64,000 nt of DNA, from contig CP145426.1 in the NCBI GenBank assembly GCA_036867785.1, positions 620,001 through 684,000 of the forward strand, written 5' to 3'. The notes under the pieces are model-generated. The model searched no databases. It was not told the DNA's origin and was given only the letters and a program-made list of their open reading frames with translations. Positions 35,822 to 44,224 of the stretch are shown piece after piece. Numbering within the stretch: the stretch's first letter is position 1; every line of letters begins with the position of its first letter. The translations under genes were made by a program, and so were the position numbers. This stretch comes from Plasmodiophora brassicae (lineage: Eukaryota).

Positions 35822-38800
35822 TTAGAAATCTGCTAACAGTCGTGAGCAGAGCGGGTCTCCTTCGGCTTGTCGTTCGAGGAAGGCCCTGACGATATCAGGA
35901 ACATCGGCCGCCATGACCGAGTAAGGTTCCCATGAATTGTCGGTGGCATCGAATCCGATCCAGTTGATCAGTAGTTCAGTGTCACCTGACGTAGAGTTGA
36001 CTCGAATGTCCTCGACTGCGTTGACTTGGTAAGCCACGCCGGTGAGCGCGATGTTGTGCTTCAGGGAAGAGGTGACATTCAAGTGCGCATCTGCATAGAA
36101 CATTAAGCGCTGGGCGTGTACATCTGAGATATGATCAGTCAAGAGATCTCGAACTCGATACACCCAGTCGTTGATGGTGTCGATAATCTGGGCAGGTCCA
36201 GTCCAGTTGTACTCGGACTTGGAGTGCTTGCCATGGTTGGCCACGAGAACATAGTCGCCCGTCGTGAAGTTGATCTCGCGAACATTGCGTCGGCGACGCC
36301 GGGCGCGTTGCTTGAGATCACGTAGATGGGTGCGTGTACGTGCCACTTCTTTGTGCATGTCCTCGAGAGAATCGATAAGTTCCGTCGTCATTTCCTTGAG
36401 ACGGTCAGGGGTCAACGGTACGTCGATAACCGCGTCGATGCGTTTGTTGAAGATAATCGAGATAGGTGTCGAGGGTGGCAAACCCGTAAACATCGTGACA
36501 GGCGCGTAGCCCACACTTGATCGAACAGTGTGATTTACCGTCATGTTGATCAGCGGAAGGACATACGGCCAATCCTGGAATGGAAGATTTAGCTCGGAGA
36601 GGAGGGACTTCAGCAGAAAGAGAAGCCGCTTGTTGACAACCTCAACCGTGCCGTTCGCCCAAGGTGTGTAGGCAGTTGTGAAATGATGGTTGCAGTGTAA
36701 CCGGCTATTAAGCTCGGCGATAACCGCGTTTTTGAAGTGTGTGCCGCGGTCAGAGACATGTTGGAAAACAATGCCGAAACGTTTGAACCAATCCAGAAGA
36801 GATTCGGCGACAACGCTGTGATCCGCGAATTGACAAGGAATTAACTCGACGAATGCTGTAGCGTCGTCCTTCAGAACCAGAACATAACGAAGTTGATGAG
36901 AATCGCCTGGACGAGGTTTGGATAAGAACAGAAAGTCATAGTGGATGACCTTATTGGGCTTGTCCGCATGCATAGCCGTGCCATAAGGTCGGGGGATCAT
37001 CGAATCTTTGTTGCGTAGGCAGTGTAAGCATTTGTCCACAAATGCACGAACAAAGGAATCGAGATCAGGCCACCAGAAGAGTTGCGCGATGCTCGAAATA
37101 GTCGATGCAGCAAGTTGATGACCAGACAGTCCCATATGTGAAATCACTGCGATGCGTAGCTGCAGTGCATGTGATGGTACCCAGAGTTGATTGTCTGGAG
37201 TACGCCAGCCAGATTCCGGGCTAAGGTGGAGAGACATGTCCCCTTCGAGTTGGAGAATATCAGAAACGGCAGATAGGTCGTGTTGGCGAATGTAGTCGGT
37301 CTGAGCGTTACTAATCTCGTCGACAGACGGCCAGATAAACTCATCGGTCATCTTGTAATCGTCGAAGTCAAGATTAATTGCCATATGACGAATAGAACGG
37401 AACGATGGAGGGGAAAATGAGGAGAGTGGTTGCAGGGCGACGCCCCACCGCGTGGCGAGGTCGGCCCAAACGTTGTCCTCCCCAGCAATGTGCTCAATGT
37501 GAAAATCTAGGTCGATAATCTGAAGTCGCCAGCGCTCCAAGCGATCGCCGGTCGTCCGACTAATTCGTGCAACCGAGGCTGGGTTCAGAATGAAAACCAA
37601 ATTACGGTGGTCTGTGAAGATTCGAAGTGCCAGCTTTGACATAGAGATGAAGTGTCTGAGGCGATAGCAGCCTTCAATGATGGCGTAGGCCTCCTTCTCA
37701 ATGGTCGCCCACTTCAATTGAGAACCACGGAATGTCCCCGAGATGAACGACAAAGGTTCGTGGTGTTGCTCACCGTACGGGAGATCAATATCTTCCGGAG
37801 GGATCTGCGACAGGAAAACAGACCAGAAACGGTCACTCGCATCCGGAAAGAGACACATGATCCATTCGTCCTTGGTGTGCGCCAGCGTCATGGCCTCCGA
37901 TAGTCGATGCTTCAGAGAATTGAAACTGGTGAGATGGTCAGTGGTCCAGCCGATGTCGGCTAAACGAACTCGACGTAGGTGTGATTTCTTCAGACTGCTG
38001 ACAGAACGAGAAGCGGACAGAAGTAGATCCTGTAGCGGATGAACATGTGCCGCGAATTGAGGGATAACAGAACGGACCCAATTGAGGCCCGAGAGGAACT
38101 GTTGGAGATCAGCAGCCGTGATAGGAGTTGATAGATCGTGCAAGGCGTTGAGATACGAGCGATCGAACGACACTCCATCAGCGGATATAACGCGACCGCA
38201 CCATGTCACTGAAGTGAGATATAACTGGCAGCGATCAGGGTTGAGTTTAACTCCAAACTCGTCGAAAGCGTTGAGAAGAGATTCGAGTGTGTCCATGTAG
38301 GCTCCGAATCCAGATACGTAGCCGAGGATATCGTCGATCCAGAGTAGGGCGCAGATATATAGAAGTTTCCCCAACACCTGTTGCATTCCCGCCTGGAACG
38401 CAAACACGCAATCAGCGATTCCCTGGATGATGCGCCTGGGTGTAAACGTGGCGATGTGCGTCATGAACGAGCAGGCCTCCTGCGAATCAGGGTGCAACGG
38501 AAATTGCCAATAGCCTTTAAAGGCATCGAACAGCATGAAGATGGTCGCGGAACGTAGGTAGGTCAGGATGATGTCGATGTGAGGCATCGGCCATGCAATG
38601 CGTTCGGTCTGTTTGTTGACGGCTTCATTGATGTCGACGGTCAGCCGATGGCCGCGAACCTCCGTGTCCTTCTTGTCGACGACCAGACACGGCGACGCGT
38701 ACCTGCTGTGCGGATTGCGGTACACAAAATCGTTTTCCGCCAAGGTTCCTACGTGATCATCCATGAATTTTTGCTGTTCGAGGGTATACCTTCGTGTTCG

Positions 38801-40711
38801 GCAACGAACAGGACGAGCATCTGCTTTGAAGTGTAGTTTCAGTGGACTTACTTTCGCAGGTGGATCACGGCCAAGCTTCGTTCGCCATATGTCTTTGTGT
38901 CGATTGACAGTTGTGCGTAGACGCGGGACTTGATCGTTAGGGAAACCGGAGTCAGTTGCACGTTGTATCATCCGGTCTATTGCCCTGTCCACGTCTGTAT
39001 CGGAGTGTTCTCCGATTTCGACATCATAGTCGTCACCCGGATCATTGGTGTCCAATTGGGGCTCATGATCGCGAGTTGTTCCACTTACCTCCGGGTGTCT
39101 TACCGCTCTCATCGTGATCCCTTGACCACCTGGGGCGTGACGTTCCGGGGTCGGATCCGCTTCGATGATGATAGGACCATTTGCCTCGATTAACATCTCC
39201 TTCAGTTGTGTAGCTGGATTGATACCCAACGCGTCCAGTTCCGGGGCTCCTAAAAGGACAATGTCATCAGATAGGTCTTCGCGACATACGTTGATTTCCC
39301 GCCCGCGTAGATGTGCAGGTTTGCCATGCGAAGGTGGGACAATGGTGATGTCCACGATCGCTGTGGCGACAATTGTTGTCGTAGCCCCGATCGTTGCAAG
39401 TTTCGCCTCCGTTGGATGGTCGAACACTTTGACTGGGACATGCTGGATGGCTTGAATCCGTAGCAGTTGCGATTGCGAAATGACGGTCTTCGTCGCACCA
39501 CTATCGGCTTCGAATGGAAGGTCGAGCGAGTTCTGGAAGCGAAGTCTCATAGGGGACGGTGTTGACGGCGACGGCGGGCCCATGCGCTTTGCCGTGTCTG
39601 CGTTGCCCTTACTCTCCTCCTTCTCTTTGCGCTCTTTCTGGAACTTTTCAATGGCAGCTTTGCGTTCTCCTTGAGTTGCCTTCGGGCACACTTGGACCCA
39701 GTGCTGCTCCTTGCAGATTAGGCAACCTGCCTTTGGAGGATCCTTACCTTCGAAACGTTTTCGGATGTGCTCGGGGATGTCCCTCGATTCGTCTTTCGTT
39801 TGCGATGTGGACGATTGAGCTGTCTTCAGTCCGATCGGATTTGTCGGATGCTTGCCGCCATTCCTATTCGGAGCAACAACGTCCTTACCTTTCTTACCTG
39901 CAGGTGGGGACATGGTCTGCGCTGGAGACTTCTTCTTCTCAGCTTGCAGCCGGAAGTGTTTGTCCTGCTCTTTGGCAAGACGGTCGACGAGGTCGAAGAA
40001 TTTGAGCTCGTCCTTCTCAGCGTCCCTGCACCCTCCGAACTCGATCGCGCGTTCGACTAGAACCGCAAGGTCAGTGGGACGGATACCTCCGCGTAATACC
40101 TTGATCTTGCGCTTGGTTCCTTTCGTTCCTTTGGCGTATGTGTCTTGTAGCCCATAGTCGTCGATTAGCTCATCGAACTTGGCGAAGAAAGACGTGACAC
40201 GTTCCTCAATACTCTTGATTGACAGGTTCATGACCACTGTCTTCGTGAGAAGCGCCTTGATGTCTGTCGAACTCTCGACATCAGCCTCCCTGCGTTGGAC
40301 TGACCTCAAGTAGCTCATGATGTCGCCATCCGTGATCGTGCTGGCGGGTTGACGTAGGCGATATTTCGACATCCCTCTGAGGACGTCCTCGGTAATGCAT
40401 GACTTCACCGTTGGCGGATGAATATCCTCCTTGTAGATCAGTCGGCGCTCGTTAACGATCTCGACGTGTTTCCTATATTTCTTGAGGAAATCGTTAATTC
40501 CGTCCTTGGCCGTAAGGCTCAGGGTACGTAGGATGGGCGGTTTCAAAGGCATAAAGATCGGGCTCTTACCGTGCAGGTTTGTTGACTGAAGCCCTCGATC
40601 GATTTCGTCATCTGTCGACGATTCATGCTCCTTGGCCTCGGCGTCGGAGTTGGTCCTGGCGTCGTCCTCCATCTGTAGACGAACGGGCGCTCTGCGGCCA
40701 CCTCCTGCCAT
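35822..40711 (-). CDS. Single gag-pol polyprotein with C-terminal chromodomain (1629 aa)
   Basis: Zn knuckle CLICKEQHWVQVC; protease ADSGA; RT DAFKGYWQ and WIDD; RNase H DAS..EKEAYA..TDHRNL; integrase HHCC, SDRGTHF and NGTVE; chromodomain LINWIGF...SWEP. Confidence 0.96.
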   Translation of the reverse strand: MAGGGRRAPVRLQMEDDARTNSDAEAKEHESSTDDEIDRGLQSTNLHGKSPIFMPLKPPILRTLSLTAKDGINDFLKKYRKHVEIVNERRLIYKEDIHPPTVKSCITEDVLRGMSKYRLRQPASTITDGDIMSYLRSVQRREADVESSTDIKALLTKTVVMNLSIKSIEERVTSFFAKFDELIDDYGLQDTYAKGTKGTKRKIKVLRGGIRPTDLAVLVERAIEFGGCRDAEKDELKFFDLVDRLAKEQDKHFRLQAEKKKSPAQTMSPPAGKKGKDVVAPNRNGGKHPTNPIGLKTAQSSTSQTKDESRDIPEHIRKRFEGKDPPKAGCLICKEQHWVQVCPKATQGERKAAIEKFQKERKEKEESKGNADTAKRMGPPSPSTPSPMRLRFQNSLDLPFEADSGATKTVISQSQLLRIQAIQHVPVKVFDHPTEAKLATIGATTTIVATAIVDITIVPPSHGKPAHLRGREINVCREDLSDDIVLLGAPELDALGINPATQLKEMLIEANGPIIIEADPTPERHAPGGQGITMRAVRHPEVSGTTRDHEPQLDTNDPGDDYDVEIGEHSDTDVDRAIDRMIQRATDSGFPNDQVPRLRTTVNRHKDIWRTKLGRDPPAKVSPLKLHFKADARPVRCRTRRYTLEQQKFMDDHVGTLAENDFVYRNPHSRYASPCLVVDKKDTEVRGHRLTVDINEAVNKQTERIAWPMPHIDIILTYLRSATIFMLFDAFKGYWQFPLHPDSQEACSFMTHIATFTPRRIIQGIADCVFAFQAGMQQVLGKLLYICALLWIDDILGYVSGFGAYMDTLESLLNAFDEFGVKLNPDRCQLYLTSVTWCGRVISADGVSFDRSYLNALHDLSTPITAADLQQFLSGLNWVRSVIPQFAAHVHPLQDLLLSASRSVSSLKKSHLRRVRLADIGWTTDHLTSFNSLKHRLSEAMTLAHTKDEWIMCLFPDASDRFWSVFLSQIPPEDIDLPYGEQHHEPLSFISGTFRGSQLKWATIEKEAYAIIEGCYRLRHFISMSKLALRIFTDHRNLVFILNPASVARISRTTGDRLERWRLQIIDLDFHIEHIAGEDNVWADLATRWGVALQPLSSFSPPSFRSIRHMAINLDFDDYKMTDEFIWPSVDEISNAQTDYIRQHDLSAVSDILQLEGDMSLHLSPESGWRTPDNQLWVPSHALQLRIAVISHMGLSGHQLAASTISSIAQLFWWPDLDSFVRAFVDKCLHCLRNKDSMIPRPYGTAMHADKPNKVIHYDFLFLSKPRPGDSHQLRYVLVLKDDATAFVELIPCQFADHSVVAESLLDWFKRFGIVFQHVSDRGTHFKNAVIAELNSRLHCNHHFTTAYTPWANGTVEVVNKRLLFLLKSLLSELNLPFQDWPYVLPLINMTVNHTVRSSVGYAPVTMFTGLPPSTPISIIFNKRIDAVIDVPLTPDRLKEMTTELIDSLEDMHKEVARTRTHLRDLKQRARRRRRNVREINFTTGDYVLVANHGKHSKSEYNWTGPAQIIDTINDWVYRVRDLLTDHISDVHAQRLMFYADAHLNVTSSLKHNIALTGVAYQVNAVEDIRVNSTSGDTELLINWIGFDATDNSWEPYSVMAADVPDIVRAFLERQAEGDPLCSRLLADF

Positions 40712-40754
40712 TAAGTGAGTTCGTTTGCTTGGGGCTCTTTGCGCAAGAAGCTTC

Positions 40755-40951
40755 TGTGCTAACGCCGCCGCTGCCCACTACGGGGGCGGTCGGTCGCAAG
40801 AGTCGGCGCCTGGTGATATAACGAACTGATGTATTTGGACAGGATCGTCACAGCAAGGGCCGCTGCGGGGTCGAGTACGGTCATGATCATGTGACCGGGT
40901 GGCAGCAGCATCTGAGCAGCATCATCTGAGTACTGGTACTCTGGATGAACA
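40755..40951 (-). repeat. 5' LTR
   Basis: Direct repeat of 35616-35812. Confidence 0.96.
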
Positions 40952-41046
40952 AGAACTCTGTATGCTCAATCTCCTGTAGATTACATGATTTTTGTTAGCC
41001 TGCGTAGAAGCAGTGTTCGCTTGTACATGCCGTTGTAAACTCAACT

Positions 41047-41213
41047 GTTTTACACCGAAGTTCGTAAAGGTCTATTTTTTATGCCAAAGTTCGTAAAGGT
41101 CATTTTTTTTGTACCGAAGTTCGTAAAGGTCATTTTTTTGTACCGAAGTTCGTAAAGGTCATTTTTTTTGTACCGAAGTTCGTAAGTTCGTACGAACTTT
41201 TTTCCAAAAAACC
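41047..41213 (-). repeat. Right TIR of the MULE
   Basis: Reverse complement of the left TIR, with the same tandem units. Confidence 0.92.
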
Positions 41214-41360
41214 CTTTTTTTGTGGTTGCGTTGATGTTTTTGTGCGGTCGCGGCTGCCTATGGACATGTTAAGATCGCTGGATCGGCAACCAGAGCCTTT
41301 GGCCAAAAATGCTATTTTAGAATCGTGTGGGTACTGAAACTTTACAAAACCAGATTCATG

Positions 41361-43952
41361 TTATCGATAATCGCCGCACGAGCAAGCGCCGTTCCTGAAG
41401 TAATGGTGGCGGCCGGGTTCACGGATGAAGACGGCGCAACCGGTGACCGACGTGACGATCTTGATCGCCTTGTGGCAGTCGGTGCAGATGCGGCAGGTGC
41501 TGGACGCACGGATGTCTAAATGGGACTGCTGCAGCGCGTACACGACGGCAATCATCGCGCTGTGCACGCGTCGCCGGGGACGTTCGCCCGTATCCGGGTC
41601 GTACCCGAGGCGCACTAAATCCACCATAAGTCGCATGTACGCCTCGCTGAGGCCGTCTTCACGTAAACGCGCATCATCCGCGCCGAAACGCATCACAGCC
41701 TGATCCGGCAGCATCAGCGTTGTCTCATCAGCGGGGAACGCAATCCCCATAGCCTGCATATCGGACCGCACCCTTGTAGCGTCAGCGAACCGTCTCGTAC
41801 GCGCGTACAGGTCGAGAATCAGGTGGCATGCTTCCAGGAGCTGGCCGTCGTCGCTTCCTGCAGCGCCTTCGGAATGCAAAGCGCGAATCCGCTCGTATGC
41901 TCGTTCGCCACGTACCGCATCGTTATGATGAGAGCAGGCGCGAAGAAGGGCAACCCATAAACGGACGCTGCTCGGCCTGTTCCTCGCAAGGCGCTCCGCG
42001 ACGTCCAGCCTTCCAGCTCGCCCATGCAGGTCCAGTAGGCACAACTCATGAGCAGCGTTGATGGGGACCTGCCAGACCTGTGCGAATTCGCCTAAAAGGG
42101 CATTGGCGCGGCCCAGGTCCCTGCACGCGCGCAAGACCGCCGTCAGCGTCACATGGTCAGGCCGGGCTCCCGCCTGCTTCATGCGTCCGAATAGCGCCAG
42201 CGCAGTCGGTCCCTGACCAGCACGGGCGAACGCGTCAATGGCCAGGGTCCACGTGACGACATCGGGGCGGAACCCGGATCGGAACGCGACCTGCCCCACG
42301 TCGTCCATCATGCCGCACGCGGCGTACGCCGACACGAACGCGTTGCCGACGACAACATCATCGCGCAGATGACGACTATCGCCCGCGCAACGCTTCAGTT
42401 CGTTGAGGGCGCAGAGGTCGGAGCATCGCCCACAGGCGGCCACCAACGACGCGAACGCGGCAGGCGTCGCGCGAAACGGATGCTTACGAAACAGGCACAT
42501 CGCTTCGCGAACACGATCCAACTTTGAGTACGAAACCAGGACGTCCGAAACAACAGCGCCGTCGTCGTCATCGTCACAGCCACGCCCAGCTGACGCTGAC
42601 ACTCGATCACTGAACGTGTCGACGGCACTGCTGTACACGCCCTGACGCGTGTAAGTAGCAATCATAGCCTTACAGGCGGCGGTCAGGCCAGAATGCGACG
42701 AGCACTGGAGCGAGGCGAACACCCGCTCGGCAGCGGGGACGTTACCGCATCGCCCATACGCGGATACGAACGCAGCGACGACGGCGACGTCGCCGATCAA
42801 GGACGATCCGTCGCCGCTGGCGTACTGCTCGAGGGCCTGGACGACCTGGGGCAGGAGGCAGGAGCCATACGCTGCCACAAATGCGCTGAAGACGGGTGGT
42901 TCGTCGAACAGACCGGCACGGCGTGCATGGCACTCCAGGTCCTCGACGGCCGACAGCTTCCTCCAGCGTCCGAACGCGCGAGCGAACGCTGCAACGACAA
43001 TGGGGACGCGTAGCAGATCGGGACGACGATGTCTGCCAGTCGCGTAATCGTACAATGTCTGAACGACGGCAGCGTCGTCGGTAGTGCAACAAGAAACCAG
43101 CAAGGAGAGCACTGGGCTATCGACGGGGACGTCGCGTTGCACCATGGTCTCGAACACCGCCATGGCCTGTCGAGTGCGACGTGCTCGGGCCAGGGCCGAT
43201 AGGACCATCGTGTAGATCGGCAACGACGGCGCCAGCCCGGCATCGTCCATGACCCGTACCGTTTCCGACACGCGATCCAGCCGGCCGCCGGCCAGCAGCG
43301 CCTTGAACAAGTTGGCGAACACGGCGTGGCCGGGTGGCGGGACGTCGACGGCGTTGTCCCGGCGAACGATCACAACGTCGAGAAGGCGATCGGCGACGTC
43401 GCTGGCCGATGACGATGATTCGGCGCAGACAGCGGCGAGCAGCGACAGCATTTGTTCGGAGAGGACCCGATGCTTGATGGCGTCATCGACAAGGAACAGG
43501 GCGGCATCGGGTTGCCGGGCGACCCGGCAGAGGTTCGCGACGCCAAAGATGACGTTGTGCGAACGAGGCCCGCATTGCCGGTACAGGTGAAGCGCCGGGC
43601 GCACCAGGGGCGGGGTCGCCACCTGGCAAGCGCCTAGGAACGTGCAGAACAGCGTGTCATCGTAGGATGTCATCCCGGCGGACACGGCCGCCTGCATGAC
43701 ATCCGGCGCCTTGCCCGGGCACGCGCGCCTGCACAGCGACATCATGACCTGGAACAGGCGCGCATCGGCGAACAGCGTCGTGTCGATGACGCGACGAAAG
43801 ACGACCCAGGCTCGGTCCGCATCCGTCTCCTCCTTCAAGATGCGGACGGCGACCGGCACCGACGGCACCCGGAGGAACCTCTCCACCGCCGACGACGCGG
43901 CGGGACGGTGGCGATGCGCGCATCGCGCACTGCGTTCACCCCATCGTCGCAT
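41361..43952 (-). CDS. Pentatricopeptide-repeat protein with E-like and degenerate DYW domain (possible small upstream exon)
   Basis: PPR motifs such as PDVVTWTLAIDAFARAGQG..AL.LF..M...GARPDHVTLTAVLRAC; LLDLHGRAGRL; C-terminus HSA...RIC.DCH..IK...IRE..RHHYFRNG.CSCGDYR. Confidence 0.9.
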   Translation of the reverse strand: MRRWGERSARCAHRHRPAASSAVERFLRVPSVPVAVRILKEETDADRAWVVFRRVIDTTLFADARLFQVMMSLCRRACPGKAPDVMQAAVSAGMTSYDDTLFCTFLGACQVATPPLVRPALHLYRQCGPRSHNVIFGVANLCRVARQPDAALFLVDDAIKHRVLSEQMLSLLAAVCAESSSSASDVADRLLDVVIVRRDNAVDVPPPGHAVFANLFKALLAGGRLDRVSETVRVMDDAGLAPSLPIYTMVLSALARARRTRQAMAVFETMVQRDVPVDSPVLSLLVSCCTTDDAAVVQTLYDYATGRHRRPDLLRVPIVVAAFARAFGRWRKLSAVEDLECHARRAGLFDEPPVFSAFVAAYGSCLLPQVVQALEQYASGDGSSLIGDVAVVAAFVSAYGRCGNVPAAERVFASLQCSSHSGLTAACKAMIATYTRQGVYSSAVDTFSDRVSASAGRGCDDDDDGAVVSDVLVSYSKLDRVREAMCLFRKHPFRATPAAFASLVAACGRCSDLCALNELKRCAGDSRHLRDDVVVGNAFVSAYAACGMMDDVGQVAFRSGFRPDVVTWTLAIDAFARAGQGPTALALFGRMKQAGARPDHVTLTAVLRACRDLGRANALLGEFAQVWQVPINAAHELCLLDLHGRAGRLDVAERLARNRPSSVRLWVALLRACSHHNDAVRGERAYERIRALHSEGAAGSDDGQLLEACHLILDLYARTRRFADATRVRSDMQAMGIAFPADETTLMLPDQAVMRFGADDARLREDGLSEAYMRLMVDLVRLGYDPDTGERPRRRVHSAMIAVVYALQQSHLDIRASSTCRICTDCHKAIKIVTSVTGCAVFIREPGRHHYFRNGACSCGDYR

Positions 43953-44224
43953 TGCCTGCGGAAACCCGCCACGAAGCTGGGCAGCAGCCCGCCCCCGCAG
44001 TGCACTGCAGTTGGCCGCGGGGTGTGCAGTTCGACTGTGGGATGCGTCGCAGCTGCAAGCCGTGACCCGTCAGGGAGGACAGCTGCAAGCACGCCGTGAC
44101 CTGTGTCGCCCCCGCGAGGGCCGTCGTCATTGCAGTCGCGCAGTTTTGCCGTTTCCTATTCTGGGGTTGCGTGGGCCGCGCCGCGGTTGGGCCCTCACTG
44201 TCGGGAGTCGCCGTGACGCATGCG

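Follow-up and report, generated by a model that had tools for sequence, protein, structure and literature searches.

The closest described counterparts of the gene reported here are the pentatricopeptide repeat (PPR) editing factors of land plants with a PPR-E-DYW plan, represented by OTP86 (7o4e/7o4f) and by the synthetic protein 9kfx. In these proteins the Glu of the HxE motif is the proton shuttle of deamination, and mutagenesis of plant DYW proteins has shown that exchanging this Glu for Ala abolishes editing. Plants also possess E and E+ editing factors that have no catalysis of their own: CRR4 operates with DYW1, and E+ proteins are served by DYW2 or MEF8, both of which are trans-acting deaminase donors. 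The present gene is nuclear and is located on the minus strand at 41361..43952 of a 64,000-nucleotide stretch of Plasmodiophora brassicae, the clubroot protist, which belongs to the Phytomyxea within Rhizaria (GCA_036867785.1, contig CP145426.1, positions 620,001 to 684,000); this whole stretch is referred to as the window, and all coordinates are given within it. The gene product is a PLS-class PPR protein with E1 and E2 motifs and a DYW domain, in which the catalytic Glu is replaced by Ala. It resembles the land-plant factors in its P2-L2-S2 end, its E1 and E2 motifs and its DYW fold, as well as in its zinc ligands (His and CxxC) and in the HxxF...CSC site at the C-terminus. It differs from them in the exchange of Glu for Ala, in the replacement of PG by AD, in a DYR ending and in a linker approximately 11 residues shorter than in most paralogs. 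As a DYW-type PPR protein apparently without catalytic capacity the gene is of a kind already known, and it is annotated as a DYW-domain protein in public databases.

Outside of plants, DYW-PPR families are described from Naegleria, Acrasis, malawimonads, paradinid Ascetosporea and Diplonema (PPRD1), and the available parts of these accounts present lineage-specific expansions linked to mitochondrial C-to-U editing (PMC11946409, bioRxiv 10.64898/2026.09.04.749523). The P. brassicae genes likewise appear to form a non-plant, lineage-specific DYW-PPR expansion. Unlike the other protist families, for which the consulted sections of PMC11946409 describe conserved His, Glu and Cys residues, about half of the P. 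brassicae family is without one of them. For Rhizaria, the same sections of Yabuki et al. 2025 (PMC11946409) report no C-to-U editing before paradinids and leave Plasmodiophora unmentioned, and a 2026 survey (PMC13386178), which may already list the P. brassicae genes, puts the number of rhizarian DYW domains at 31 without elaborating on them in its main text. The survey in the 2026 preprint on Diplonema PPRD1 covers, in its accessible portion, Discoba and malawimonads only (bioRxiv 10.64898/2026.09.04.749523). The mitochondrial genome of P. brassicae is 114,663 bp long and intron-rich, and the accessible text of its description contains RNA editing only in a reference title (PMC6823432). The open-access literature yielded no account of a P. 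brassicae DYW-PPR family or of C-to-U editing in this organism, and no description of a high share of inactive DYW domains, of the shared N-terminal module or of the frameshift polymorphism described below.

The gene and its parts are laid out as follows.

41361..43952, minus strand: whole open reading frame (ORF) of the PPR-E-DYW protein, 863 codons from the first ATG plus a TAA stop
43863..43952, minus strand: Arg-rich N-terminus, residues 1–30, with 2 acidic residues; presumed mitochondrial presequence, judged from composition
43053..43862, minus strand: conserved N-terminal P-type PPR module, residues 31–300, common to 55 of 152 other proteins at 30–51% identity to the window copy
41961..43052, minus strand: PLS-type PPR array of about 11 motifs, residues 301–664; borders upstream of P2 are approximate
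Within the array, minus strand: last PLS motifs, P2 at residues 565–599, L2 at 600–634 and S2 at 635–664, placed with paralog-built profiles
41736..41960, minus strand: E1 and E2 motifs, residues 665–739, placed by a TPR_14 match at 664–693, the 9kfx alignment and model helices
41364..41735, minus strand: DYW deaminase-fold domain, residues 740–863, placed by Pfam, structure-sequence alignment, AlphaFold2 model and fold search
41727..41732, minus strand: PG-box columns, A741-D742 in place of Pro-Gly, from alignment columns
41556..41564, minus strand: HxE motif, H797-S798-A799 (cac agc gcg), with Ala in place of the catalytic Glu, from DNA and alignments
41472..41486, minus strand: C823-T-D-C826-H827, the CxxCH zinc-ligand motif, kept, from DNA and alignment
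41361..41372, minus strand: D861-Y862-R863 and stop, a terminal DYR in place of DYW, from DNA and second allele
43377..43381, minus strand: polymorphic site at codon 192/193, a frame-shifting 4-letter tandem duplication (TCGA) in the contig of one sequencing run
41301..44153, minus strand: extent of transcript-sized contigs, from run contigs

The architecture given in the initial annotation, a PPR-E-DYW protein, is borne out by Pfam and by alignment to a solved structure. PPR families match the product strongly (PPR_2, E=1.1e-24; PPR, 6.1e-22; PPR_long, 3.3e-12 at residues 146–292; also PPR_1 and PPR_3). The DYW_deaminase family (PF14432) matches residues 796–862 over profile positions 24–92 of 93 with E=4e-16 and 59.1 bits, well over the cut-off of 24, which disposes of the concern that the C-terminus might not fit a DYW profile. 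The array is of the PLS type, with P2, L2 and S2 profiles built from paralogs scoring 40–46 bits over residues 565–664. It is followed by E1 and E2 motifs: residues 665–862 align without a break to E1-E2-DYW of 9kfx, and the structural model has helices in the E region. The composition of residues 1–30 is that of a probable mitochondrial presequence.

The codon run cac agc gcg atg encodes H797, S798, A799 and M800, with the Ala codon GCG at 41556–41558, and the domain continues with C823-T-D-C826-H827, H849-H850-Y-F and C857-S-C859 before ending in G-D-Y-R and TAA. In a sequence search against solved structures, residues 665–862 matched E1-E2-DYW of 9kfx with E=3.1e-21, and this alignment sets HSAMIAVVYAL of the window protein opposite HSEKLAIAFGL; further matches were DYW1 (7w86, 1.6e-12) and OTP86 (7o4e, 1.6e-10). 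An AlphaFold2 model of the last 200 residues, made from a 55-row alignment, has a mean predicted local distance difference test score (pLDDT) of 91.3 and a predicted template modelling score of 0.82. Its sole dip (mean pLDDT 66, model residues 121–130) is in the linker before the HSA helix. A Foldseek search with this model returned 9kfx as the best PDB match (E=1.7e-13), along with the OTP86 DYW domain in both states (7o4e, 7o4f) and DYW1 (7w86), all at E<=2.5e-5.

The residues on which catalysis would depend are unevenly preserved. Both alleles, that of the window and that of a second strain, have H-S-A at the HxE motif and end in DYR, not in a tripeptide with an aromatic last residue, and the PG-box columns read AD, although both strands are predicted there. 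Nothing is missing among the zinc ligands: H797, C823 and C826 are in place, and so is the second zinc site. The earlier readings from the DNA of HSA in place of HSE, of retained CxxC ligands and of a DYR end all stand, in both strains. Since the Glu is absent from two alleles while the fold and zinc ligands remain, it is a reasonable inference from sequence that the DYW domain is catalytically inert with its fold and zinc ligands kept, the presumed loss of catalysis following from the plant mutagenesis described above.

The sequence of the locus is well supported. The stretch is present in 20 of 24 listed public runs, from 10 studies, and contigs of four runs from four studies were aligned over 41100–44200. 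The contigs of all four cover the Ala codon, and no alternative letter occurs anywhere in this interval. A second-strain allele of P. brassicae, PBRA_009253 (P0171; UniProt A0A0G4J633, named 'DYW domain-containing protein'), is 97% identical and belongs to the same 90%-identity cluster. Over 863 aligned residues it departs from the window protein at 22, and it has one additional Ala, an in-frame indel of 1 aa; it likewise reads HSA, CTDCH and DYR in an open frame, so that both alleles span 863–864 codons. As HSA is found in both, the replacement of Glu is older than the split of the window and PBRA_009253 alleles.

Three studies provide contigs that are collinear with the gene (2806, 2852 and 3236 letters), two of them without gaps and the third with a 4-letter insertion only, and the gene therefore looks intron-free, as first described. 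On the 3' side of the gene, contigs from three studies end at 41301, 41302 and 41312, approximately 50–60 letters past the stop, and a DNA-like run continues beyond; the high-coordinate ends are at 44105, 44153 and beyond 44200. These contigs hint at an unspliced mRNA of about 2.8 kb, the RNA label of the runs being a guess, and the gene appears to be transcribed in P. brassicae. The GC content at third codon positions (GC3) is 0.741, compared to 0.642 overall, which indicates that position-specific composition persists in the gene.

An exhaustive search of 1.84 billion cluster representatives produced 14128 hits at E<=0.001, of which the best 150 were examined; the family census is thus a lower bound. 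These representatives and a few earlier hits make up 152 other proteins, which were scanned for the N-terminal module at a threshold of >60 bits. The module, approximately 270 aa in length (window residues 31–300), is found in 55 of them, which places the window gene within a family. A DYW domain is present in 39 of the 55, and 26 further DYW proteins, referred to as plant-like hits, do not have the module; a P-type PPR module ahead of the PLS tract thus distinguishes the window protein from them. Within the family the module is the best-conserved part, with 30–51% identity to the window copy versus 25–41% for the C-terminal 200 residues. Its model (pLDDT 95.7) contains 17 helices, and a fold search with it gave generic PPR/TPR solenoids only, from which no specific function emerged. 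Word-index searches with the family alignment or with the module alone returned 13 and 14 proteins, adding little amid PPR candidates. Nearly all of the family representatives that were looked up (20 of 21) are from P. brassicae, the remaining one being known from a metagenome only, and this species accounts for 25 of the 39 DYW-bearing clusters, with 13 not looked up or nameless. Judged by sequence, the gene belongs to a lineage-specific family of P. brassicae, and the family fits a single origin followed by expansion inside the lineage. The census of DYW genes proposed in the initial annotation is thereby answered in part, with at least 39 DYW paralog clusters among the best 150 representatives, 19 of them having lost a catalytic or zinc residue.

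Motif states were read by script from aligned columns, a domain being called intact when HxE has its His and Glu and CxxC both its Cys. By this measure 20 of 39 family DYW domains are intact, compared to 25 of 26 plant-like hits, and the corresponding degenerate counts are 19 of 39 and 1 of 26 (Fisher p=8.2e-5). Loss of the Glu only accounts for 12 of the 19, with the residue replaced by Ala in the window copy and P0019, by Val in three, by Thr, Asp and Pro in two each and by Cys in one; a zinc ligand is lost in the other 7. None of the 39 domains has lost the C-terminal CxC or the second His of HxHF. The degenerate representatives are named P. brassicae in 17 of 19 cases, and the intact or degenerate state requires at least 13 changes on a poorly resolved family tree. 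P0034 (P. brassicae, 807 aa) ends in GYR, keeps HSE and has lost the first Cys of CxxC; because it too ends in Arg, a W-to-R ending is not unique to the window gene. In many paralogs catalysis has presumably gone while the structural zinc site has stayed, and on this evidence an inactive DYW domain is probably a recurrent, tolerated and structurally maintained state in the P. brassicae family rather than mere wreckage. That 19 of 39 paralogs are degenerate speaks more for a non-catalytic state that is maintained than for one recent mishap.

To consider where the family came from, a rapid maximum-likelihood tree was built from the last 150 residues of the 39 family domains and the 26 best-scoring plant-like domains, the outgroup containing no other protists. 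A branch with a Shimodaira-Hasegawa-like approximate likelihood ratio test (SH-aLRT) value of 100 sets the 39 family domains apart from the plant-like hits, with a long stem between them. A recent transfer of the gene from the host plant to the parasite could be imagined from the plant-like PLS-E1-E2-DYW architecture, from the life of P. brassicae inside Brassicaceae roots and from the view, found in the consulted parts of PMC11946409 and PMC13386178, that protist DYW genes derive from plants by transfer. Such an event is nevertheless highly improbable in view of the strongly supported long stem. The nearest named proteins outside the family are from lycophytes (Diphasiastrum, Selaginella) and Amborella, which make up six of the nine non-family hits looked up (the other three being nameless), and the plant-like hits are only 22–33% identical over the C-terminal 200 residues. 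All family members have the N-terminal module and none of the plant-like hits do, and the GC content of the gene (0.64) equals that of its flanks. The hint of gene transfer in the initial annotation is thus not upheld as a recent event; an ancient transfer of the family into the lineage is possible. Sequencing or assembly error as the source of the Ala codon, which GAG in the reads was to have revealed, was ruled out: four of four runs from four studies match the window over the codon and the independently sequenced strain has Ala, so that an error, for which no evidence came up, has next to no likelihood. An enzyme still active without the canonical Glu, by way of a neighbouring residue or one supplied by a partner, or in some other reaction, would be in keeping with the intact fold and the retention of H797, C823, C826 and the second zinc site. 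We consider this very unlikely, given the effect of Glu-to-Ala exchange in plant DYW proteins and the absence of any acidic residue in the aligned helix HSAMIAVVYAL that might replace the Glu. The PG box, reported as needed for editing in the accessible text of PMC13386178, is gone as well.

We lean towards the window gene encoding a functional, non-catalytic mitochondrial RNA-binding factor that relies on active paralogs or acts outside of editing. The main rival is a gene in decay, which would have become dispensable after loss of the Glu and be drifting towards a pseudogene, with the open frame of the window strain a remnant; we regard this as possible but rather unlikely. A number of observations weigh against the favoured function, several of which would suit decay. 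In one of the four runs TCGA is inserted behind 43377 as a tandem duplication of the next four letters, which shifts the frame. The cluster also includes a 670-aa ORF whose first residue is precisely V194; identical in the remainder and located on 3 Logan contigs (the longest 40 kb), it fits a frameshift allele with the TCGA duplication. Some isolates thus seem to carry an allele without the presequence and most of the N-terminal module, and to manage without the full protein. Between-strain amino-acid divergence is 2.55% (22 of 863), the highest of 17 cluster-member pairs (others 0–2.4%), with changes spread, by eye, evenly across all domains. The end branch of the window DYW domain is among the longest at 1.15, versus a median of 0.65, and end branches tend to be a little longer in degenerate than in intact members (0.87 versus 0.70), a weak result (one-sided Mann-Whitney p=0.059). 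The PG box is lost, the W-to-R change has altered the end, the linker from GYxPD to the HxE helix is approximately 11 residues shorter than in most paralogs, and several internal PPR motifs have, by eye, a non-canonical position 5. No ortholog from another species above approximately 50% identity was found among the best 150 of the 14128 hits or in an earlier search. Decay is opposed by two diverged alleles that remain open over 863–864 codons with a sole indel that is in frame, by the retention of every zinc ligand in a fold predicted with high confidence, by a GC3 above the overall GC and by transcript-like contigs in three studies. Nor is the 2.55% of the window copy an outlier, since intact-site paralogs diverge similarly between strains (P0016, 2.4%; P0015, 1.9%). 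Among the three fates first offered for the gene (an RNA-binding factor without catalysis, the partner of an editor that is active, or recent decay), the choice has been narrowed only in part: an inert site and a paralog context have been added, and decay has gained the frameshift allele.

As a non-catalytic RNA-binding factor, the protein would enter the mitochondrion, where its PPR tract would bind one or few RNA sites. With Glu exchanged for Ala, the PG box lost and Arg in place of the terminal Trp, it would presumably be unable to deaminate alone. It may mark a cytidine for editing in trans by an intact DYW paralog, in the manner of plant E/E+ proteins, or it may have a non-editing role in RNA stabilisation, processing or splicing in an intron-rich mitochondrial genome. 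The former would share with the plant E/E+ factors (CRR4/DYW1, DYW2, MEF8) the logic of a site-recognition PPR protein and a separate active DYW domain. The window protein differs from those factors in having a DYW domain that is whole but inactivated, not truncated, and the split is proposed inside a rhizarian family, independent of plants. Three family members with an intact site are short (P0007, 641 aa; P0024, 621 aa; P0010, 708 aa) and consist of the N-terminal module, a handful of PLS motifs and the E-DYW end, a plan that may be said to recall DYW2 and MEF8; from their sequences, P0007 and P0024 could be catalytic donors. A more far-reaching proposal, which we put forward tentatively and hold to be doubtful, is that plant-like C-to-U editing in P. 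brassicae mitochondria is split in two. About half of the approximately 40 DYW-PPR paralogs, the window gene included, would be dead site-recognition factors using the deaminase of intact paralogs, some of which are very short, and docking might take place via the N-terminal module common to all members. If true, this split would be a convergent counterpart, in a rhizarian parasite, of the angiosperm E+/DYW2-type editosome.

The surroundings of the gene include a Ty3/gypsy-type long terminal repeat retrotransposon at 35615–40951, approximately 350 letters past the 3' end of the PPR transcript. Its ORF (35822–40711, minus strand, 1629 aa) contains reverse transcriptase, RNase H, integrase zinc-binding and integrase core domains, and it is flanked by two 198-nt direct repeats (35615–35812 and 40754–40951) that are 100% identical, which suggests a very recent insertion. 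One run has short contigs at very high depth over 41100–41203, a sign of repeated sequence there too. An ORF of 1098 aa (32364–35660, minus strand) has, at residues 193–316, a match to the DNA-binding GCM (glial cells missing) motif (PF03615, E=1.1e-7, 32.4 bits, cut-off 25). The GCM domain is known chiefly from animals and is unexpected in a rhizarian protist. Ankyrin-repeat ORFs are present at 22688–24283 on the minus strand (Ank_2, E=1.1e-58) and 47124–48059 on the plus strand (Ank_2, E=2.1e-19), and a 1305-aa ORF at 17005–20922, also on the plus strand, resembles the REJ domain weakly (E=6.8e-8). The GC content is 0.51–0.56 over window positions 30001–42000 versus 0.60–0.73 elsewhere, a reduction that coincides with the retroelement and neighbouring long ORFs.

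The gene presents a whole but apparently inactivated DYW domain in a rhizarian crop parasite, and it points to a family of at least 39 DYW clusters, about half of them degenerate, whose context is more interesting than the gene itself. From the family, dozens of mitochondrial editing sites would be expected in P. brassicae, a prediction testable with existing RNA-seq and mitochondrial DNA. With its active and inactive DYW domains, the family would also be a natural series in which to study the separation of recognition from catalysis.

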